Shown here piece by piece: positions 6,781 through 17,515 of a stretch of 40,985 nt of DNA. The notes under the pieces are model-generated. The model was not told the origin of the DNA and made no database searches. It worked only from the letters and a program-made list of their open reading frames with translations. How positions within the stretch are numbered: position 1 is the stretch's first letter; each line of letters opens with the position of its first letter. The position numbers and the translations under genes are program-made. The DNA is from a virus. Lineage: Duplodnaviria; Heunggongvirae; Uroviricota; Caudoviricetes. The stretch lies in the IMG/VR virus record IMGVR_UViG_2563366942_000017, positions 1 through 40,985 of that record; one strand, given 5' to 3'.

Positions 6781-6800
6781 CCGCATAAGCGGTTTTTTTA
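6781..6800 (+). terminator. Rho-independent terminator
   Basis: CCGCataaGCGG hairpin followed by TTTTTTT. Confidence 0.5.
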
Positions 6801-6952
6801 TGTGTAAAGCGCACCTATTCTATGGTGGGCTGTGTGGGGGCACCGAAAGGTGCGCCGGGTCCTTTGTAGCCGGTTACGCCAACCCTGCACAGTTCACCAC
6901 CAACCGATTGGCGTCGGTAGTGGTGATTAACCTAACTACAAAGGTGATCACT

Positions 6953-7639
6953 ATGACTGCTAACGTAACCCCATCTGTTTTTCATTTTGAATCAGAAGCA
7001 ACCATTCGAGCCATTGTTATTGATGGAAATCCTTGGTTTGTTGCCAAAGACGTTATTAAAGCTCTTCAACTGACAAACCCCACTATGTCAATAAAATCTC
7101 TTGATGATGATGAAAGGGCTAAATTTAACTTAGGCCGTCAAGGTGAAACCAATATTATCAACGAGTCAGGCCTCTACACACTGATCCTCCGCTGCCGCGA
7201 CGCAGTGACACCAGGCACTATCCCCTACCGCTTTCGTAAATGGGTTACAGGTGAGGTTCTTCCTCAGATCCGCCGCACCGGAAGTTACATAAAAAACTCG
7301 CTCCCGCAAGAAGAACGCATAAAGATGGTTGCCGACCAGGTAGCCAACGCCACGGCGTCAGCAGTAATGCAGGCGATGAAGATAGAGAACAAAACCTACA
7401 GTGCCCCACTGAAGCCCGGCTACCGTAGCCTGATTCATTCTCCGTCTGGTGTTCTCGGCCTGACGGAAAACTCACTGCTGATGAATCTGCTGAACCAGTT
7501 ACAGGAAGACGGGCACGACGTATCGGGCGCGGCGGCGGAGCTGACCACCATGTTCTGCTACATCGTCGGTGTGAGCAAATGCCTGCGTGATATCCAGACC
7601 CACGCGGAGTACATCAACGACAAGGCAGGGTTCTTCTGA
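6953..7639 (+). CDS. Antirepressor with Bro-N-like N-terminal domain
   Basis: SD AAGGTGA before ATG 6953; N-terminal IDGNPWFVAKDV motif typical of Bro-N/Ant N-terminal domain; C-terminal 77 aa identical to that of ORF 8813..9751; upstream ORF extension is treated as 5' leader. Confidence 0.65.
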   Translation: MTANVTPSVFHFESEATIRAIVIDGNPWFVAKDVIKALQLTNPTMSIKSLDDDERAKFNLGRQGETNIINESGLYTLILRCRDAVTPGTIPYRFRKWVTGEVLPQIRRTGSYIKNSLPQEERIKMVADQVANATASAVMQAMKIENKTYSAPLKPGYRSLIHSPSGVLGLTENSLLMNLLNQLQEDGHDVSGAAAELTTMFCYIVGVSKCLRDIQTHAEYINDKAGFF

Positions 7640-7785: not shown

Positions 7786-7965
7786 ATGCGAAACGAAAAA
7801 TTGCAGATGCGTAGAGCGCAAGCTGCCGCAAGACGTTCTTTCAATGGAAGCGTAGAGTACGTAAAAGTTACTATGACAAAAGATCACGCAAGTCGCGTAT
7901 CCCGCGCTTTCTTTGATTCTCGTAACAATAAGGAAAATTATGAGTTCGTCTGCGTCGCAGAATGA
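7786..7965 (+). CDS. Small basic protein (59 aa), candidate antitoxin/regulator partner
   Basis: Not in ORF track (<60 aa); ATG 7786 with SD GAGGTAA 6 nt upstream; overlaps downstream gene start by 26 nt (translational coupling). Confidence 0.35.
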   Translation: MRNEKLQMRRAQAAARRSFNGSVEYVKVTMTKDHASRVSRAFFDSRNNKENYEFVCVAE

Positions 7966-8485
7966 TAAAAATCAAATTGTCAGATATAAGGGTCGAGTAT
8001 TGCATACGCAAAATTTCTCGGCCCTTTGTGCATCTGATCTTGAGCTGAAGAAAGTATCTGATGCCTTTACCCAGTATTGGAAAACGGGATACCATCCATC
8101 TCTTGGTAAAGATGCTGCATTTGCTCGTCCGACAGAAATGCTTAAACTAAATGTCAGGCATACTCATGTCGATAACCAAGACTATATTCCAGAAGATAGT
8201 GATAAAAAACACACTGGTAAAAAATCATCTTGGGATGCATGGAAAAATATAGCGTCTGTGCAAGTAAAATGCATACCAACAAGTGATTGCTTTTTAGTTT
8301 ATTCGGTAAATCACAATCGTGATGCGCTGGTTATGTTTTTTGTTGACGCAGATGCCCACAACATAACTGAGCAAGAAGAGTTTAAAGAGGCAGCAATCAC
8401 TATCAGTTATCAATTCTTTGAGAAAACAAAAACAGAACCAATGCCTTTAGAAGAAGATCTTTTTTCTGATAAATGGAAGGAATAA
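7940..8485 (+). CDS. YafO-family toxin-like protein (candidate toxin or abortive-infection effector)
   Basis: SD AAGGA before ATG 7940; segments DAFTQYWKTGYHPSLGKDA, VRHTHVDN and CFLVYSVNHNRDALVMFFVD resemble E. coli YafO motifs (recalled from memory, no search run); AT-rich codon usage; strong terminator follows. Confidence 0.45.
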   Translation: MSSSASQNDKNQIVRYKGRVLHTQNFSALCASDLELKKVSDAFTQYWKTGYHPSLGKDAAFARPTEMLKLNVRHTHVDNQDYIPEDSDKKHTGKKSSWDAWKNIASVQVKCIPTSDCFLVYSVNHNRDALVMFFVDADAHNITEQEEFKEAAITISYQFFEKTKTEPMPLEEDLFSDKWKE

Positions 8486-8578: not shown

Positions 8579-8740
8579 ATGAAAAAAGCATTTGCTGCAC
8601 TGTTCGTTTTGTTGTCTCTGGTAGCTTCAACTCAGGCCTTTGCCGGTCGTTGTCAGCACGACAGCGATACTGCCGCTGACGGCTCCCGCTGCGGTGGGCG
8701 TTCTGCGGATTCCCGCCCGGGCGGCGGTGGCATTCGTTAA
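8579..8740 (+). CDS. Small secreted peptide candidate (signal peptide plus ~30 aa Gly/Arg/Cys-containing mature part)
   Basis: MKKAFAALFVLLSLVASTQAFA looks like a Sec signal peptide with AFA cleavage site; weak SD; GC-rich. Confidence 0.3.
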   Translation: MKKAFAALFVLLSLVASTQAFAGRCQHDSDTAADGSRCGGRSADSRPGGGGIR

Positions 8741-8786: not shown

Positions 8787-9057
8787 TTGCACGTCCCTGT
8801 GCCGCCGTTCTGTCAGAAGAACCCTGCTTTGTCGTTGATGTATTCCGCGTGCGTCTGGATATCACGCAGGCATTTGCTCACACCGACGATGTAGCAGAAC
8901 ATGGTGGTCAGCTCCGCCGCCGCGCCCGATACATCGTGCCCGTCTTCCTGTAACTGGTTCAGCAGATTCATCAGCAGTGAGTTCTCCGTCAGGCCGAGAA
9001 CACCCGACGGCGAATGAATCAGACTGCGGTAGCCTGGCTTCAATGGATAACCATAAC
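8787..9057. repeat. Inverted repeat arm 2 (3' end of second antirepressor gene plus ~25 bp)
   Basis: Reverse-complement match to 7395..7665; boundaries approximate. Confidence 0.6.
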
Positions 9058-9751
9058 ATTTTGTCTGTGTTTTAATTGCCTCACGAAGCGCATCTAACAT
9101 CTTGACTGCCACTTCATCATTCTCTGATGCAGATCCAGCAGGGAGATACTCCCCTTCAAGCGGAACCCGAGCAACAAGAGACAACGCTTCGGCAAATTGA
9201 TCTTCACCAATTTCTTTGTACGAACAGCCAAAATGAGATTTCAGTGACGACCACATGGTGATCATCGCCTTAGCCTGTTTTTCTTTTGGCAGAGACTGAC
9301 CGCGACTCATGACGAGTTGTTTAATGGCTTCCTGCTGTTCAGTTGTTATTTTACCCGGCAACGCCTTTTTAGCTTTGCGTGGGTTAACCACATGGCCTTT
9401 AGTCCAGTACTCGTAGAGCACATCGTCACACTCTTCCTGATACTGGATTACCTTGTCGCGGATTTCAGGGCGGACTTTGTTAGGGCTGATGCTGTTCAAC
9501 CAAGCTGCCAATTTTCGTAAAGCCATACAAATCATGGCTTGCACCCCACCGGCAGAAGGTATGGTGATTTCCACCATACCCTTCGAGAAGCGTTGAGAAA
9601 TCTTCTTATGTTGAGATTTCCAGTCTAGCCCCATTCCCTCAACGATAGGTTTCATTGGGGTATACGGTTCGCCGTTGTGATTGACAACATAAAGCTCTGC
9701 GCCGTGGAATGGCACGTTGATAGTAGATACTGCTGTTGCTATACTCGTCAT
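8813..9751 (-). CDS. Antirepressor (Ant-like), distinct N-terminal domain, shared C-terminal module
   Basis: N-terminal NVPFHGAELYVVNHNGEPYTPMKPIVEGMGLDW resembles antirepressor N-domains; C-terminal 77 aa identical to ORF 6953..7639; sits downstream of Arc-like gene as in P22 arc-ant. Confidence 0.65.
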   Translation of the reverse strand: MTSIATAVSTINVPFHGAELYVVNHNGEPYTPMKPIVEGMGLDWKSQHKKISQRFSKGMVEITIPSAGGVQAMICMALRKLAAWLNSISPNKVRPEIRDKVIQYQEECDDVLYEYWTKGHVVNPRKAKKALPGKITTEQQEAIKQLVMSRGQSLPKEKQAKAMITMWSSLKSHFGCSYKEIGEDQFAEALSLVARVPLEGEYLPAGSASENDEVAVKMLDALREAIKTQTKCYGYPLKPGYRSLIHSPSGVLGLTENSLLMNLLNQLQEDGHDVSGAAAELTTMFCYIVGVSKCLRDIQTHAEYINDKAGFF

Positions 9752-9823
9752 GTCGTTAATTCCTATACGTAGTTTTACGATACTGAAGCCCTGACGGTCT
9801 GGCCACCGTGGGGCTTCGCTGTT

Positions 9824-9991
9824 TTATGCCACGCTATTCTTCTCACCAGTGAGTCCATACACTTTCCTCAGCTGATAGATAATCTCTGTATTGAACTTTC
9901 GGCATTCTTTTTCGCCATTTCTTTCAATAGCTAACTTCACATCGTCCGGAAAACGAACTCGTCGTTGACACATCTCTTTTGCTTTTTGCAT
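9824..9991 (-). CDS. Arc-like ribbon-helix-helix repressor
   Basis: SD AGGAG before ATG 9989-9991; 55 aa; RVRFPDDVKLAIERNGEKECRKFNTEIIYQL fits Arc/Mnt RHH pattern (beta-strand then two helices). Confidence 0.55.
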   Translation of the reverse strand: MQKAKEMCQRRVRFPDDVKLAIERNGEKECRKFNTEIIYQLRKVYGLTGEKNSVA

Positions 9992-10006
9992 TTCATATCT
10001 CCTTAG

Positions 10007-10065
10007 CCCCACCGTGGGGCAAAATAATTGTCACACCGTGCGTCATTGATGTCAAGCACACGGTG
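10007..10065. promoter_or_regulatory. immI-like operator/promoter region with CACCGTG palindromes
   Basis: GCCCCAC-C-GTGGGGC palindrome at 10007-10020, CACCGTG at 10034-10040 and its inverse CACGGTG at 10059-10065; a related GGCCACCGTGGGGC lies at 9801-9814 between arc-like and ant. Confidence 0.45.
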
Positions 10066-10111
10066 AGGCATACTTCAATCATTGCAAGTAACTCAATATT
10101 TGGTGAAGAAC

Positions 10112-10543
10112 ATGAGCAGAGAAGATCCACAACTAAGGATCAGACTTCCCGTCGAAGTAAAAGAAAAAATAGAAATTTCTGCAAAAGCCAATAAGCGATC
10201 AATGAACGCTGAAATAGTACAACGTCTTGACACCAGCTTTCTGAAAGATATTCATGAAGATGACGTAATTTCTGCTTATGAAGCAAAAATCATTGCAAAC
10301 AATGCACGACATGAAATATCAAATATTATTTTCAAAAGAACCTTTAATGAAATTAATAAGAAAATAACACTTGGACATACAAGTTTTTATATAAACCTTA
10401 ATGACCTTGAACTGGAATCACTTGCAGATAATGATTACCAGATCATCTTTGAAAAAACATTTAATAAGCTCAATGAACTAGGTTACATCATCTGTGAAAA
10501 CTCATGGGATGCAGATGGTTTTGGAATTGAAATACCTGAATAG
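10112..10543 (+). CDS. Mnt-like RHH DNA-binding protein with ~95-aa C-terminal extension
   Basis: N-terminus RIRLPVEVKEKIEISAKANKRSMNAEIVQRL matches Mnt/Arc RHH motif; divergent from arc-like gene; ORF track start is TTG, internal ATG 10112 preferred. Confidence 0.55.
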   Translation: MSREDPQLRIRLPVEVKEKIEISAKANKRSMNAEIVQRLDTSFLKDIHEDDVISAYEAKIIANNARHEISNIIFKRTFNEINKKITLGHTSFYINLNDLELESLADNDYQIIFEKTFNKLNELGYIICENSWDADGFGIEIPE

Positions 10544-10606
10544 GAAGAACAAAAGGCGTGTACATATTACACGTCTTTAATACAATTGAAAAACGCCACA
10601 TTACTG

Positions 10607-11197
10607 ATGTATGTTACAACAAGGAGCGATATTTTGAAAACCATATCTATATTAAAGGTTGCATTAGGCGTCGCTATTATTTTGACTCTCTCAATATTGT
10701 TTTATTTTTACCACAAACAAACTGCTATTGCTCTTGATAGTCACGCGGCAAACTCATTTTTCTCAGAGTACATAGTGCCGCTATCAGGAAGCGGTATAAC
10801 AAATAAATATACTGACTATGACATCAAATATGGAATTGATGATGGGGAGACTATTGTATTACATGTAATCATTAAAAACCTAATGACAGTAAATAAAAAT
10901 ACAGACTTCAACGATAAAAATACAATACATCACAACAACAGCAAAACATTAATTTCTTATAGTAGCAACATCTATACGGATAAATGCCTAAAATACATAT
11001 CAGAAGATACAATAAAAGAAACCCGCGAAAAGTTAAAAAACATATATTGTGCATCCGGCAGTTTTCACAAATTATCGCCGCAAGAGCGTTTATTCTACGA
11101 AGCAAGAAAACAACGTAAGTCAATAATATTACATTATTATGCTGATTCAGGGGAGACACTCATATTTAATATTGGGGTTTCCCCTGAATCATGCTAA
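10607..11197 (+). CDS. AT-rich membrane-anchored protein of unknown function (superinfection-exclusion/defense candidate)
   Basis: N-terminal TM helix ILKVALGVAIILTLSILFYFY; very AT-rich compared with flanking structural genes; start ambiguous (ATG 10607 or TTG 10634 with AAGGAG SD). Confidence 0.45.
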   Translation: MYVTTRSDILKTISILKVALGVAIILTLSILFYFYHKQTAIALDSHAANSFFSEYIVPLSGSGITNKYTDYDIKYGIDDGETIVLHVIIKNLMTVNKNTDFNDKNTIHHNNSKTLISYSSNIYTDKCLKYISEDTIKETREKLKNIYCASGSFHKLSPQERLFYEARKQRKSIILHYYADSGETLIFNIGVSPESC

Positions 11198-11208
11198 AGG
11201 TGTTTAAC

Positions 11209-14200
11209 TCACCGCATCACCGGATCCACCTGGTTTATTAGTGGCGCAATCCAGAACAGGTTATTGCCGGGTATCAGGGTTCGGACATTATGCACAATAC
11301 GATCACCGGCATCACCATTCAACACTCCTGCGGTCACATCAATGATGCTATCCGCAAGACCAAATGACGGTCCGAATAGAGATCCTACGAATCCACGACT
11401 GGCATACCTAGACTGTGTGCCAGTGCCAAATAAAGCCCCCAGCCCAACAGCACCACCAGTAGCCTTTTCAGCCATATTGTTATATTCCATCAATGGCCCA
11501 AGAATACCGGATCTATCTATACCCTCAAGCACCAGCTTCTCTGGTGACCAGTCAACATTTTTCCCTTTCGATGCTTCTTTAAGCGCATAGACCAGTGAGC
11601 CAAGAGCAATCTGAAATGCAGTGCCATAATAAAATTGCGCAGTTCCTTCCTGTAACCCACCAAGTAGCGCACGGTTGTATGAAGCCGTTGTGAATGATTT
11701 AAACTGAAATATCGTTCGCCCCATTGGAGTACTCGCCCATAAAGGTGTGTCACCAATACCGGGGGTGATGATAGTGTTATTAACGTCTTTCAGAACCGCT
11801 GACTGGAATACTCCGGCAACGTACTGATCGTCCCATTTATCAAAGTTACCAATGTGCCATCCATCAATTACCTCACCATGTTTCTCGAACTCACTGCGAA
11901 TACGCGCAGCCATATTGTCGTTGATACCGAGTTTTGCCATGCGACGTGCAGAAAACGCACCAGACAAAATACCGTCTGACGTGAGCATTCCGTTCATGGA
12001 TTTGTTTATGTCATTAAATCGATCCATGAGTGTCAGCTTGCCGAAGGCATCAGTAATTCGCTCCATTCCTGCTTCGACTGCTGTTGTCCTGGAAGAACTG
12101 TCAACAAGATCACCAATTGCACGAGAACGTGAATGTAGTACAGTTTCCAATCCAATCCCCATCTTCAACATCTCTTCTTTGCTGGCCTTAAATGCCGGTG
12201 ATTGGGATATCTGAGAAGCATAGCCTTTCATGGAGTTACGGAAACCATTAACCATAACCCCTCTGGCCAGATCTGGAATAGCTGATACTGTCATTCCACC
12301 GAGTTTGGTCGTGAAGTTCACATCCCGCAGAAAAGCGCCAGCACGAACAAAAAACGAAGACGGGTCATCAGGCATACCATATGTACCAACAAGACGATCG
12401 CGTAATGCTGTTATGTCTCTGAGATCATTTGCTCTTGATTTTGAAAGTCTGGACTGTTCTTTCCGTAATTCCTTTTCGTACTTTCGCATTAATGAATCGA
12501 GTTTACCCTGAGGAACAACTTCACCATTGCTCTCATAACGTGCTTTCAGATTTGCCACACTTTCGTCATATTTCGCCTTTATTTTTTCAGGCACTTCCCG
12601 TAACAGACTGTCATATTCGTCCTCAATTAATTGCAGACGCTCTGTCATAGTTCGTTTGCCAAATGTTCTCGTCAACTCAATTTCTGCTGCCGCTTCACGG
12701 ATATGACGTTGTAGAACGTAATTCACATCACTTTCGAGATAATCCCTGATAAGACTATCAGGCACATTTAATGTTCTTTCTTTCGTACTACCTGCGGCTT
12801 TTACAGAAAATACGCTGACAAAATCCTGTGGAACCTTAGCACCAGTAATTTTATTAATTACGATATCCGCTGCAATTTCAGCATCCTCAGGATCCAGTGT
12901 TTTATTGCCTCTCGACCACCAGTCAACCAAAATACGTCGAAATTTATCGCGTTCACTGATTATTTTTCCAACTTTATATATACGTGGGAAATAGCTTGCC
13001 TGGCCTAATGCTTTCAGTTCTTCATCTGGCGGCAATAAACCAAGCTTTTGCATTTCAACCTTCACCCGATTTAATACAGTTCGCATCGCCTGCGCCGTTT
13101 CCTGAACAACAGGATTAGCATGCACATCACCGCTTCGCATAGCATTCCCAACCTGCTGACGAAATGAATCAAAACTCATGTCACCACCATCAGCTTTATA
13201 CTTTGCGTATGCCTGTTTATTTCCGACAACAACAGCAGCTTCTTCACGCTGCCATCCACGTGTACGGGTTTCTACAGCTACCGGTGTTTCAATCCCCCTT
13301 TCATTTCCTTTAAGGGTGAAATTATTTTCGGCTAACTCCAGCGTTGTTTTTCGCACTGTCTTGGACGGAGACTCCATTAACCTTGTCAAAGGAGTAAGAT
13401 AGCTCCCTGCTTTCCATGCAGCCTTTCCAACCACCCCACCGGAAACAGGGGTTAAATCATCCAGAGTCGCTGTATCAATTTTCATAGCACCAACACTACC
13501 ACCATCAGAAAGCGAAGCGGCAGCCCTGTCAGTCGCTGATGTAATGCTCATATTATCAAGAGCATCAGCAACCTCACGCGTGGCTGCAGCCCGGACGGAT
13601 GGCGAAAGCGCAACACCAGCACTGGCAAACACGCCGCTCATCATCGCACCCGCTGCAATGTGAGCGGCACTTTCACCCCATGAGCGTGTTATTTGCTGAT
13701 TATTCAGCACAACCTCGCTTAATGCTGTACCGGCTGCACCAATCGCAATCTGTGAGCCAATACGCGCCAGTGCCCCTCCTTGAGCACCGGGGATAAACAT
13801 TGACGCAACAGTAACCGGATCCATTCCCGCAGCAATACTGGCAAGGGTTCCAACTACGCCAGCATCAGACAATAAACGTCTGTCTTCATTTTCATCATCT
13901 ATCTGCTGCTTAATCCACGCCGTTTCCTCTGGCGATCGGGAATCTGCAAATTTCGCCCCCCAGTATTCATAACCGTGCAACTCATTTTTATCAGCATATG
14001 GGTTATAACCTTCGACCGGTTCAAACTGTCTGGCTGGTCGGAAAAAACCAGCCAGAATATTGTTCTGTCGCATTGCAGCCCCCCATACGGAAGGCTCCGG
14101 TGGCAATGGCTCAGGATTAGCCCCTTCCGGAAGGGCAACATCAAACCCAGTTTGTTCCGGCAAAACATTACCTGACGGGATCAGTCCGTTATTAAGATCT

Positions 14201-14223: not shown

Positions 14224-16940
14224 TATTTAGATCCCCACGAAAAGTAATCTTTAAATTTGTCCATACGTTCGTTATGCAGGCGCTGATACTGCTCATCCAG
14301 AGCGCGATGCTTGTCTTTGAAGTTTCGTATAGCCTGTCCACGCATAATTTCTTCCTGCTCGTACTGCTCCCGTTCCTGCTGCATTTTCTTATAAGGTTCC
14401 CAATCTTCTAGTGATGGTTCCCAACGCATAGGACGCCCATGTTTGTTATAAAACGGCTGGACCCGATCGATGCCATTTTCATCCTTAGTTCTTACCATAA
14501 TGGCGTAATCACCATTACGAGGTGTTAACACGTCAGGGGTTATGAATAATTCTCCATTAATACGACTCTCAGGGGTTTTTGTCTCAACTACAGGAGCATT
14601 ACCTGACGTGATCCCAAGCAACGTCGGACTGGTTGTTATAATCTCTTTGCGCTCACCGTACATCAGCCGTTCTTTTTCAGCTTTCCACTGCGCCGCCTGC
14701 CAGCCTGACGGCCCATATTGATAAAGCGCCTCCGGTGCATATTTCATAAACTGCGCTTCTCCGTTAACCTCGCTGATACTCCAGGTGCGGGCTATCTGCT
14801 GGTTGGTCATTTGCTTCGCTACGTCAGCGTTACCACCAGCAACGCGGTAGTTAATGTCATACAGCGTCTGATAGTCATTACGGAATCTAGCTGCTTCCGG
14901 CGTCTGGTCATCCGCAGACGGATCCCAACGGAACCACTGCGCCATATTGCTGACAGCAGAATTCATCGCCTTGCTGCGATTATTTTTGTACTCTTTTGAA
15001 CTCTGCGTTGATGCCAATTGAGCTTTAAGAGCATCGGTCTGGTTGTACGTCAGGTTCTGCGCCTGCTCGATAGCCGCATCAGCAGACATGCCAGAATCTG
15101 TTAGTTGCTTAACAGTCAGATAAAAACCCTGCATATCCTTCGGCATATTTCCAATAGATGCATTGTCTGTTTCATATAACCGACTAAACAAATTCGCTGC
15201 ATTTTTAACCACTTCCTGATTGCTGGATCTGGATACTGCTGAAAGCTGCGTGATGACCTGCGAAGGCATGATGCCAGTCTGAGCCACAAGCCGAACAACC
15301 CCATCATGAGTGGAGGCATCATTAATACGAAAGTTCTGCGCCATTTCTGTGTAATCAGCAGCTTTCTGCATTGATTTGTTGCTTGGGTCTAATTTTTCAC
15401 CTATTGTCAGCGCCTCATTGAATCTGCGTGAATCACGTTGCGCCTGAATTGCTTCATTTGATCGCTGAAGCAATGCAGACAATTTTCCGTAAGCATCGAG
15501 TTTTAACGCATAGTGAGGATCGTTAACCTCAGGCTTCACTTTCTGCATTTCTTCTTGCTGCTGAGAAGGAGGTAAATACTGAATTGCCTGGAATATTCTC
15601 GCGTTATCAATCGCTATATCCAGTTGATTGATTATTTTATCTGCATTTTTTCCATACCCCCTGATGATAGTCTCCTGAGCCGGTATATAATCTGGAACCT
15701 CACCGTTATATAGCTGGGCCATGGTGTTATTAATAGCTGGCTCAAGCTGTTCTAATATTAACTTCCTTTGCTTTTCTATCTGACTATTAGCAAGGTTATC
15801 TATTTGATAAATAGTCAGCGGATCCATTCCAGTTTTATTTTTTCTATATCGGGAAAGCCACCCTTGTGTTTCTGATGGAAGATTTCGGATAAATTCTTCT
15901 TCTGATATTTCACCTTTACGTGGATCACCGACTTTGGCGATCAGTTTATCCACGTTACCCATCCCCCAGTTATATGCTGCTCCGGTCAATATTTCGGAGC
16001 CGTACTTACCATACAGTTGATTTACATAGTCACTGGCGAGCATTTCATGCTGTTGTTCGTCCGTAGGGTTGTATTTAACGCCACGCTTGGCCGCCAGTTC
16101 TTTCCCTGTGCCCGGCATTAACTGGTATTTCCCCTGGGCTCTCTCTCCAGAAGATGTTATCGGTCCTTCAAGAAGACTACCATCAGGATTAAAATGTCGA
16201 TCACCTGATTCAACAAGGCGTATGGCACGCATGTCCATGCCTCCAGAATCATTTTTCTGAAACAGACCATTTAGCCATCCTTCTGGATTGGCAGCGGCAT
16301 AATTCTTCGCCCGCATTTCTGTGGCACGGCGATCATCACTTTCTATTTCTTCCAGAATGCGTTCTTGTGACCATCCCCTGGCAGCTCCATATCTAGCAAT
16401 GGCTACCATTCTGGAATTTCTGGCTAAAGTGGCAGTTTGCGGGTCATTCCAGGCATCCGCTTCATTTTGTATCCATAATTTTCTCGTTGCCTGATATTGC
16501 TCATCTTCATAGGCATTTGTCTGCCCTATCTCATGTCTGAGAACTCCAGTACTGAACTGAATTTTCTGTGTTCTGGCTTGTTGCAAAAACATATTTCTTG
16601 CTGCTTCATCAGTCAATGAAGCAGCTATTTCTTCCACATCCTGATCAAATCCAGATATGTACTCTTGCCCCTTACCAATCGCATTTTTGCCTTGTTGTGC
16701 ATAAAAACCGGTTTGAGGGTTATAAAGACGTTCATTGCTGCGCTGATTAAGCTGAAGGATGGCATCCTGAGACAATGCAACATTCGCTTTCTGCCTGGCT
16801 TCACCATATGCCACCGCATACTGATCTGCGACATTCGCCAGCACCTGACCTGCTTGAGGAACATCGAAGGTCTGAAAACCACCGGTTTGCACACCACGAC
16901 TTTGCACCTGGCGTCCGGATGTAGTAGGAACAACAGGCAT
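14223..16940 (-). CDS. Internal virion protein with lytic transglycosylase (SLT) domain
   Basis: LVESGDRHF...GERAQGKYQLMPGTG...AYNWG resembles the ES...GLMQ(L)MP...AYN motifs of soluble lytic transglycosylases; 905 aa. Confidence 0.65.
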   Translation of the reverse strand: MPVVPTTSGRQVQSRGVQTGGFQTFDVPQAGQVLANVADQYAVAYGEARQKANVALSQDAILQLNQRSNERLYNPQTGFYAQQGKNAIGKGQEYISGFDQDVEEIAASLTDEAARNMFLQQARTQKIQFSTGVLRHEIGQTNAYEDEQYQATRKLWIQNEADAWNDPQTATLARNSRMVAIARYGAARGWSQERILEEIESDDRRATEMRAKNYAAANPEGWLNGLFQKNDSGGMDMRAIRLVESGDRHFNPDGSLLEGPITSSGERAQGKYQLMPGTGKELAAKRGVKYNPTDEQQHEMLASDYVNQLYGKYGSEILTGAAYNWGMGNVDKLIAKVGDPRKGEISEEEFIRNLPSETQGWLSRYRKNKTGMDPLTIYQIDNLANSQIEKQRKLILEQLEPAINNTMAQLYNGEVPDYIPAQETIIRGYGKNADKIINQLDIAIDNARIFQAIQYLPPSQQQEEMQKVKPEVNDPHYALKLDAYGKLSALLQRSNEAIQAQRDSRRFNEALTIGEKLDPSNKSMQKAADYTEMAQNFRINDASTHDGVVRLVAQTGIMPSQVITQLSAVSRSSNQEVVKNAANLFSRLYETDNASIGNMPKDMQGFYLTVKQLTDSGMSADAAIEQAQNLTYNQTDALKAQLASTQSSKEYKNNRSKAMNSAVSNMAQWFRWDPSADDQTPEAARFRNDYQTLYDINYRVAGGNADVAKQMTNQQIARTWSISEVNGEAQFMKYAPEALYQYGPSGWQAAQWKAEKERLMYGERKEIITTSPTLLGITSGNAPVVETKTPESRINGELFITPDVLTPRNGDYAIMVRTKDENGIDRVQPFYNKHGRPMRWEPSLEDWEPYKKMQQEREQYEQEEIMRGQAIRNFKDKHRALDEQYQRLHNERMDKFKDYFSWGSK

Positions 16941-17515
16941 CAGTAACCTCCTATTTTGAATCGGGAGTCAGAATTCATAAAACCTGAGTTAGATAACATT
17001 GGCGTCCCACCACTAGATGTACTTCCTTTAGAGAACGGACTCCACGTCCCACCAAACATCTGGTACGCACCGTATGCCTTCAGAGGCGCAGTGAGCAATG
17101 TTGTTGCTGCTCCCACATTCCCCTGTTTACGGGCTGAACTGGCTTCTGCTTTATAGTTGGCAGCCTGAACCTGATAACCGTAAGCCTCGCGTTGCGCGTT
17201 ATTCACCGTCGTCAGCGAATCAAGAGCGCCAAACTGGGCAGTGTCGCCAAATATATCCAGCGCGTTACCGGTAGATAAATCGGCGCCGGTCGCCCCCATT
17301 GTCGCCGCTTGTGTACCAAGCCGCTGTCGGGTCTCTCTGCGCCGTTGCTCAGCTTCAGCGTTACCTCTGTTTATTGCATCATTTGCCTGAGCAGTGGCTA
17401 TATCTGCGTTCGCTTCTGCAACCTTCGAGGCATACTTTCCCTGTTGGTACTGGGTGTATGCCTGAATGCCACTCATGGCGAGCATTGCGCCACCAGCAAT
17501 AACCGGATCGCACAT
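16940..17515 (-). CDS. Internal virion protein (gp14-like position)
   Basis: 191 aa, Ala/Gln/Gly-rich, start/stop coupled with neighbours in structural operon. Confidence 0.4.
   Translation of the reverse strand: MCDPVIAGGAMLAMSGIQAYTQYQQGKYASKVAEANADIATAQANDAINRGNAEAEQRRRETRQRLGTQAATMGATGADLSTGNALDIFGDTAQFGALDSLTTVNNAQREAYGYQVQAANYKAEASSARKQGNVGAATTLLTAPLKAYGAYQMFGGTWSPFSKGSTSSGGTPMLSNSGFMNSDSRFKIGGY

Follow-up and report, generated by a model that had tools for sequence, protein, structure and literature searches.

A conserved exported protein encoded beside the ejection genes of a TL-2011b-like Escherichia coli prophage, a candidate superinfection-exclusion factor

An AT-rich gene convergent on the ejection-protein genes

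We analysed an open reading frame (ORF) on the + strand of a 40,985-nucleotide sequence from a virus of the Caudoviricetes (IMG/VR record IMGVR_UViG_2563366942_000017; this whole stretch is referred to as the window). The ORF spans positions 10586–11197, counts 203 codons from a TTG at 10586 and lies between a gene for a Mnt-like protein and a gene for a T7 gp16-like internal virion protein on the opposite strand (Table 1). A preliminary description of the window had reported a membrane-anchored protein of ~197 amino acids at this locus and had proposed it as a candidate superinfection-exclusion or defence effector. The probability that chance alone yields an open frame of this length (203 codons) at 33% GC is very low (about 1e-7 by our own estimate). 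The frame itself, a match to the protein family phrog_8033 and the selection detected among homologues (see below) bear out the existence of the ORF, which is a genuine gene.

Three in-frame start codons are present, giving products of 203 (TTG 10586), 196 (ATG 10607) and 187 residues (TTG 10634). The length first reported matches the ATG 10607 frame, but TTG 10634 is the best-supported start, since the AAGGAG upstream of it, the alignment to the phrog_8033 profile (187 positions; E 4.6e-128), which opens at residue 17 of the 203-codon ORF, the 564-nt annotation of gp39 in Escherichia phage TL-2011b, equal to the 187-aa version, and the 187-aa entries for this protein in NCBI and UniRef all agree.

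The ORF has a GC content of 32.6%, compared with 48.2% for the whole window and 46.5% for the adjoining gp16-like gene, confirming by GC profile that it is much poorer in GC than the adjacent structural genes. Only 1.4% of all 564-nt segments have a GC content as low as the ORF, and segments of this length below 36% GC start exclusively within 9901–10751, a region that also covers the Mnt-like gene (32.4% GC). The ORF and the Mnt-like gene form a single AT-rich island, the window's sole stretch below 36% GC.

Over the 1,551 bases compared (9750–11300), the window is 99.5% identical to TL-2011b, a temperate phage of an O103:H25 enterohaemorrhagic E. coli (EHEC) strain. Its source is an E. coli prophage that resembles TL-2011b, carries T7-like internal-core genes and is not P22-like. 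The stop codons of the ORF and of the gp16-like gene are convergent and 11 nt apart, and therefore late transcripts must cross the ORF in antisense. The ORF is flanked by the last ejection-protein gene and the mnt-like gene and runs counter to the late operon, and together with the Mnt-like gene it is antisense inside the late transcription unit, as sieA and mnt are in phage P22. The position equivalent to sieA that had been proposed is upheld by this comparison, in which the same slot lies between the last ejection gene and mnt, next to a real immI module. The analogy with P22 holds for the slot but not for the phage, which is TL-2011b-like with T7-like gp14-like, SLT and gp16-like core genes. 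An epsilon15-like phage was also considered and rejected, as the gp16-like protein matches internal virion proteins of the T7 type from phages of Vibrio, Klebsiella and Ralstonia. No epsilon15 record is present among the matches listed for the gp16-like protein, and a spanin family is all that TL-2011b-type phage and epsilon15 have in common.

Table 1. Features of the ORF, its product and its surroundings. Positions refer to the window unless a locus is named.
Feature	Position	Strand	Evidence or remarks
Antirepressor gene ant	8813–9751	-	P22_AR_N domain, E 5.9e-45
sar antisense RNA, RF00262	9753–9820	+	44.8 bits (Rfam gathering score 43), E 3.5e-7; between arc and ant
arc-like gene, 55 aa	9824–9991	-	ATG with AGGAG before it
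Operator-like repeat cluster (CCACCGTGGGGC and variants)	10006–10069		arc/mnt divergent region, over a - strand promoter-like site
Mnt-like gene, 143 aa, phrog_1388	10112–10543	+	Arc/ribbon-helix-helix domain PF03869, E 1.2e-14, and an AT-rich C-terminal part
Hairpin, 11-bp stem and 5-nt loop	10552–10578		Mnt-like gene/ORF gap; -12.1 kcal/mol for the RNA form
Promoter-like site TGTACA-16-TACAAT	10559–10586	+	possible own promoter of the ORF; consensus match alone
Shine–Dalgarno sequence AAGGAG	10621–10626	+	7 nt 5' of TTG 10634; read off the sequence
Coding sequence of the 187-aa protein	10634–11197	+	TTG start, TAA stop at 11195–11197; TL-2011b gp39; phrog_8033 member
N-terminal signal-anchor or transmembrane segment, residues 9–26 (VALGVAIILTLSILFYFY)	10658–10711	+	hydropathy
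Predicted periplasmic alpha/beta domain, residues 32–187	10727–11194	+
Cys139 codon, end of helix a2	11048–11050	+	invariant across the family
Cys187 codon, last residue, 'PESC'	11192–11194	+	kept in all full-length members; putatively disulfide-bonded to Cys139
T7 gp16-like internal virion (ejection) protein, 1004 aa	11209–14223	-	convergent with the ORF
Internal virion protein with SLT transglycosylase domain, 905 aa	14223–16940	-
T7 gp14-like internal virion protein	16940–17515	-	PF24072
Alternative cargo, 175 aa	L034, 3448–3975	+	phrog_21690
Alternative cargo, 98 aa	L035, 3680–3976	-	phrog_21905

Export and predicted fold of the product

The product of the ORF is an exported protein. Hydropathy analysis (Kyte–Doolittle, 19-residue windows) of the 187-aa sequence showed that windows starting at residues 1–10, spanning ~1–28, score above 1.6 with a peak of 2.47, and that no other window exceeds 1.6, so that a second hydrophobic segment is absent. 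This topology check confirms the single N-terminal transmembrane helix described earlier. A possible signal-peptidase site (AIA↓LD, the arrow marking the cut) is found at residues 31–35, and homologues with 46–53% identity (IMG/VR loci L020–L028) carry a canonical cleavable Sec signal peptide, MKKLIPLLLIFPFIAFA↓S, instead of the anchor. Since these homologues bear cleavable signal peptides, the conserved domain appears to act in the periplasm, and membrane tethering appears to be optional. The soluble C-terminal domain of the preliminary description is retained as a predicted globular domain, with its location corrected to the periplasm on the basis of the homologues' signal peptides.

A canonical lipobox is absent from every family member; members have either a signal peptide ending in AFA↓S or a comparable site or an extended N-terminal anchor. 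Lipoprotein status was rejected for these proteins, as the cysteines in the N-terminal hydrophobic region have bulky residues before them and more hydrophobic residues after them. Full-length members contain two invariant cysteines, C139 and C187. The window allele has a third, unpaired cysteine in the periplasmic domain, at residue 118 (codon 10985–10987), where Tyr is found in 16 of 17 close alleles (the window being one of the 17) and in P0001. The exact window protein was found on 28 contigs.

The structure of the protein was predicted with AlphaFold2 using 15 family sequences (pLDDT 77, pTM 0.68, core blocks above 90); an earlier model built on three sequences (pLDDT 54) was too poor and was not used. 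The predicted order of elements is a1, b1–b3, an insert (approximately residues 88–121), a2, a3, b4, b5 and a short C-terminal helix, the insert after b3 being lineage-specific. In Foldseek searches, the top-ranked structures were AspS (probability 0.77) and PA3611 (probability 0.87), with EpsS among the matches. In AspS the elements follow the order a1, b1–b3, a2, a3, b4, b5, a4, and a conserved disulfide, also present in PA3611, joins a2 to a4; AspS binds a segment of its secretin as a peptide, and PA3611 has an additional element after b3 as well as a hydrophobic groove (PMC3542185). The order in our model equals that of AspS, its insert comes after b3 like the additional element of PA3611, and one invariant cysteine closes a2 while the other is the C-terminal residue. 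The strongest argument for an AspS/PA3611-like fold is that these cysteines, an independent feature of the sequence, agree with the predicted structure. Membership of PF16549 is not claimed, because homology to AspS is undetectable at the sequence level: none of 16 family members matched PF16549 at E≤10, and YghG itself matched with E 1.3e-16. As far as the libraries and the literature searches show, this predicted link between the family and the fold is new.

Searches of Pfam, NCBIfam, PADLOC and PDB sequences gave sub-threshold matches only (Cas7 15.6 bits, ThsB 15 bits, PilA E 0.47). The family profile also matched PDB 7c5x, a diatom iota-carbonic anhydrase, with E 6.8e-8, a value that comes from summing three weak repeat matches; the match lies over a beta-hairpin with a DDG turn and probably does not reflect homology.

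The predicted fold and element order resemble those of pilotins from type II secretion systems (T2SS), namely AspS, EpsS and YghG (PF16549; PDB 4FTF, 5ZDH and 6I2V), and the ORF protein further resembles AspS in the location of its two conserved cysteines, its predicted periplasmic site and its size. Unlike these pilotins, the family lacks a PF16549 match and a lipobox and is phage-borne; every family locus is a prophage locus beside ejection genes and none is linked to gsp genes, and E. coli-type members have an extra insert of ~30 residues after b3. Pseudomonas aeruginosa PA3611 (PDB 3NPD) is periplasmic and chromosomally encoded and is 9% identical to the ORF protein, a match that gives the fold and not the function.

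These structural neighbours raise the possibility of lysogenic conversion, in which a non-lipidated pilotin look-alike would bind the S-domain of a host secretin (the T2SS secretin GspD, or one of a type IV pilus or a filamentous phage) or another periplasmic partner, and would thereby affect secretion, piliation or receptor availability. The nearest folds are T2SS pilotins and the non-lipoprotein PA3611, which has been proposed as a secretin binder in the periplasm (PMC3542185), and the AspS pilotin gene yghG is present in E. coli. Nonetheless, we regard conversion as unlikely: the family has no sequence relation to PF16549 and no lipobox, belongs to one phage lineage and is never found near gsp genes.

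A small family in an exchangeable slot

An exhaustive profile search of 1.84 billion representatives yielded 17 family proteins, and a word-indexed search yielded 12. TL-2011b is the only one of 50,697 phage records to carry a family gene. A scan of GTDB genomes, made with overly specific patterns, gave no loci. The hosts are Escherichia (including E. albertii and E. marmotae), Superficieibacter, Providencia and Proteus, with further members on metagenomic contigs, and all members are labelled "hypothetical protein". The family is tiny, unannotated and restricted to one phage lineage in Enterobacterales. The module is present in 36 of 5426 complete E. coli genomes (~0.7%), chromosomal every time, including Shiga toxin-producing (STEC), enterotoxigenic (ETEC) and avian pathogenic (APEC) strains.

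Both the gene and its position are conserved. We compared ten lineages (the window, L002, L020, L021–L028, L029, L030, L037/L038, L039, L040 and L041, the last with its gp16-like gene cut by the contig end), with ORF proteins of 28–52% identity. In all ten, the gene and the gp16-like gene (937–1133 aa) are on opposite strands and converge; the gp16-like proteins of these lineages are 50–78% identical, the ORF protein having diverged more rapidly than the structural proteins next to it.

Among homologues at dS ~0.6, dN/dS is 0.12–0.17, which indicates that the gene is functional and clearly points to purifying selection. In contrast to values of 0.04–0.18 for its neighbours, pN/pS of the ORF reaches 0.84 among 16 near-identical E. 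coli loci, a figure built on only 11 segregating sites; diversifying selection among close alleles is possible. This ratio, the very low GC content and occasional frameshifted database copies would also fit a decaying or functionless ORF acquired horizontally. We consider decay very improbable, given the conservation of the protein with invariant residues across Escherichia, Superficieibacter, Providencia and Proteus, the low dN/dS at moderate divergence and the predominance of intact 187-aa alleles, the commonest of which occurs on 767 contigs. A majority of frameshifted alleles was rejected for the same reason, the frameshifted cluster representative P0003 being found on one contig only. An A6 run (11035–11040) lies just 5' of the Cys139 codon, and P0003, P0010 and P0016 are frameshifted there, at KLK(N/K). 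These copies stem from two divergent lineages and could be sequencing errors or the result of slippage-prone inactivation.

The neighbour upstream of the ORF varies. The window and L002 both have an Arc-type gene there, and in L002 the overlap of the two ORFs implies one operon; elsewhere the neighbour is a gene for a 240-aa zinc-finger-like protein, for a 216-aa protein, a gene on the opposite strand, or a 115-aa ORF just 5' of the terminase gene that is without a family match and probably encodes the small terminase subunit. Because this neighbour differs among lineages, linkage to Mnt is not a property of the ORF family. A toxin–antitoxin-like pair, with the ribbon-helix-helix (RHH) protein as antitoxin and the ORF product as toxin, would account for the RHH gene directly upstream, for the overlap in L002 and for a weak FitA-like RHH match. 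It is nevertheless hardly credible, considering that the downstream protein is exported, that the RHH partner is missing in most lineages and that the RHH protein is Mnt-like and stands within a full immI module.

The slot itself is exchangeable. The end of the gp16-like gene is found in 46 complete E. coli genomes, 36 of which have the ORF as cargo. In strain MS8345 the equivalent of 9727–11212 is swapped for a 175-aa protein with an N-terminal transmembrane helix (phrog_21690), and in UTME-9 and MCJCHV-1 for a 98-aa protein with two transmembrane segments (phrog_21905). The ORF is an AT-rich accessory gene for an envelope protein in this slot. By analogy, unrelated small membrane proteins in one slot beside ejection genes would be the pattern expected of a hotspot for exclusion genes or morons; the exclusion gene sieA offers a parallel to the slot variation, as SieA occurs as three types, A–C (PMC10883804).

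At its 3' end, the gp16-like gene contains a 45-bp stretch (11215–11259) that occurs alone, with 100% identity, in ~34 further complete E. coli genomes. In MCJCHV-1, the sole such genome inspected, it adjoins different structural genes (encoding a DUF919 protein). The stretch looks like a conserved recombination junction bordering the variable slot, and a weak + strand terminator-like hairpin lies inside it (11219–11234).

A complete P22-type immI module (Mnt-like, Arc, sar and Ant) is present in this non-P22-like podovirus. That the ORF lies directly downstream of a Mnt-like gene, as first described, was corroborated by the RHH domain and by a match of the encoded protein to P22 Mnt (31% identity, E 2e-13). 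The Mnt-like protein has 143 residues compared with 83 for P22 Mnt, and ~55–60 of its residues extend past the stretch aligned with the latter. The part that follows the RHH domain (residues 54–143, encoded by 10271–10543 on the + strand) is without a family match and is the window's most AT-rich coding stretch (29.7% GC, GC3 22%).

The near-palindromic CCACCGTGGGGC occurs in exact copies at 9803 (9803–9814) and 10009 and in degenerate form at 10033 and 10058, with a spacing of ~24–25 nt. The repeats span a promoter-like site on the - strand (TTGACA-17-GACAAT) and are probably Arc/Mnt operators. Copies with three mismatches are not above chance genome-wide. In the gap between the Mnt-like gene and the ORF, no operator-like repeat with ≤2 mismatches was found. 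The hairpin in this gap is not followed by a U-tract on the + strand; on the - strand it scored as a terminator-like element. The sieA gene of P22 is transcribed from a separate promoter, and mnt is followed by a terminator. Given this precedent, together with the hairpin and the promoter-like site, the ORF could be transcribed either from a dedicated promoter or as read-through of the Mnt-like gene. Co-regulation of the ORF by the Mnt-like protein, as suggested in the preliminary description, was not supported: an operator-like repeat is absent directly upstream, the hairpin and the promoter-like site intervene, and the Mnt linkage is not family-wide.

Other genes were noted further upstream. 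There are two antirepressor-type genes, at 6800–7639 (+, Bro-N) and 8813–9751 (-, P22_AR_N), with a C-terminal module (phrog_450/phrog_15539) common to both; in sister prophages the antirepressor region is inverted or duplicated, with an ant pseudogene left behind. A YafO-family toxin-like gene (7913–8485, +) matches PF13957 with 25.8 bits against a cut-off of 25 and belongs to phrog_1651. It recurs near the ORF family in the Providencia loci L037/L038 and in L041, and a small overlapping ORF upstream of it, annotated in TL-2011b, may encode an antitoxin. The 53-aa ORF at 8579–8740 (+), the same as TL-2011b gp43, has a signal-peptide-like N-terminus (MKKAFAALFVLLSLVASTQAFA↓GRC...) and a tail rich in Gly, Arg and Asp; its equivalent (WP_000708858.1) is kept in all slot variants examined.

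Candidate functions of the ORF protein

The known protein nearest in genomic context is P22 SieA. Both genes occupy the same slot after the last ejection gene, opposite to the late operon and beside mnt, arc, sar and ant; both encode envelope proteins of small size, and the sequences of either family vary greatly from lineage to lineage while the position stays fixed. SieA crosses the membrane with three predicted helices, lacks a signal sequence, carries the conserved motif FxRYPxEAxxFNK on the cytoplasmic side and is proposed to act on P22 gp20 and gp16, blocking the conduit formed by the ejection proteins (PMC10883804). In contrast, the ORF protein has one anchor or a cleaved signal peptide with a predicted periplasmic globular domain, and its phage has T7-like ejection proteins.

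A divergent true member of the SieA family would explain the shared slot relative to the ejection genes and mnt and the similar size of the proteins. The remote-homology and topology checks refuted this relationship and leave it practically no likelihood. BLASTP gave E 0.25 and hhalign a probability of 0.3%; the two proteins belong to different PHROGs (phrog_7745 for SieA, phrog_8033 for the ORF protein) and differ in topology, with one hydrophobic segment against three and signal peptides among the homologues, and the SieA motif is absent from the 187-aa sequence and from the family alignment. The BLASTP pairing of EANGFNKEFI, in the SieA motif region, with AANSFFSEYI was rejected on account of its E-value and of the opposite membrane side of the two segments.

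The reading we tentatively favour, as a serious possibility that falls somewhat short of probable, is that the ORF protein is a periplasmic superinfection-exclusion factor that binds T7-like ejection proteins. The gene would be expressed from the prophage, through its own promoter or read-through from the Mnt-like gene. In E. coli, a signal-anchor that is cleaved slowly or not at all would keep the protein attached to the inner membrane, and in other lineages the protein would be released into the periplasm. Its alpha/beta domain, with the predicted PA3611/AspS peptide-binding fold and a putative stabilising disulfide, might then bind a periplasm-exposed segment of the gp14-like, SLT or gp16-like proteins of a superinfecting TL-2011b-type phage. 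As some homologues are fully secreted, one would expect a target exposed to the periplasm rather than an inner-membrane channel. Assembly or function of the trans-envelope DNA conduit would thereby be prevented, as proposed for SieA against P22 gp20 and gp16. Interference with the conduit is thus a mode of action borrowed from SieA, and the two proteins would be functionally analogous, but the protein and the compartment would differ.

A bolder form of this reading, which we consider possible but doubtful, is that of a disulfide-bonded periplasmic 'decoy' with a pilotin fold, which would capture a helix of the T7-like ejectosome proteins in transit so that the conduit never forms. Such a decoy would represent a previously unrecognised class of exclusion protein, with a fold that may have been recruited from secretin-binding pilotins.

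Other phage- or prophage-encoded exclusion proteins, namely HK97 gp15, T4 Sp, P1 Sim and lactococcal Sie2009, combine an N-terminal anchor or signal peptide with a domain outside the cytoplasm and interfere at DNA entry. They show no detectable relation to the ORF protein. To our knowledge, none of them has been reported to have a pilotin-like fold, and none was found among the matches of our PHROG or structure searches.

The same location would suit a periplasmic accessory of the lytic cycle, such as an antiholin-like lysis timer, or an inhibitor or chaperone of the SLT protein, the endolysin or the ejection proteins. The protein is periplasmic by prediction, its N-terminus being either a signal-anchor or a cleaved signal peptide depending on the lineage, and its linkage to the SLT and gp16-like genes is tight and ancient. 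We rate such an accessory as rather unlikely. Roles in lysis and in O-acetylation are already filled, because other genes of the phage supply a holin, an endolysin, a spanin and an O-acetyltransferase; the lysis genes of TL-2011b form a separate holin/endolysin/Rz-like cassette (PMC6139136). A role as spanin or in lysis was rejected in view of this cassette, of the globular alpha/beta model and of the secreted homologues, and a role in seroconversion was rejected because TL-2011b already carries the O-acetyltransferase gene.

Several points weigh against exclusion by a pilotin-like protein. The adjacency to the ejection genes may just mirror conserved gene order in one phage lineage. The fold assignment is based on the 15-sequence model at pLDDT 77, the Foldseek E-values (0.16–0.2) are not significant, a BFVD fold search gave no significant viral structural match, and hhalign comparisons with AspS/YghG, including a three-sequence AspS profile, were null (probabilities 0.3% and 0.2%). 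Among the libraries searched, no similarity to any known exclusion or defence protein was detected. PADLOC-DB 2.0 gave no credible match, a ThsB/TIR-like hit (E 0.005, 15 bits) being obtained with one member and none with P0005; this hit was discounted because a TIR domain would be cytoplasmic and the ORF protein is exported. Furthermore, the elevated pN/pS among close alleles depends on few segregating sites, and a gene of 32% GC may undergo H-NS silencing in E. coli.

If the exclusion reading is wrong, the ORF would be another conserved prophage accessory gene. If it is correct, the ORF protein would be a soluble or tethered periplasmic blocker of the podovirus ejectosome, a mechanistically distinct counterpart of SieA, built on a fold so far known just from secretin pilotins and one orphan Pseudomonas protein. 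It would extend the role of the PA3611/AspS fold beyond secretion systems and would provide a handle on the passage of T7-like ejection proteins through the periplasm. Carriage of the gene in STEC, ETEC and APEC could then influence the phage susceptibility of these strains in typing or therapy.

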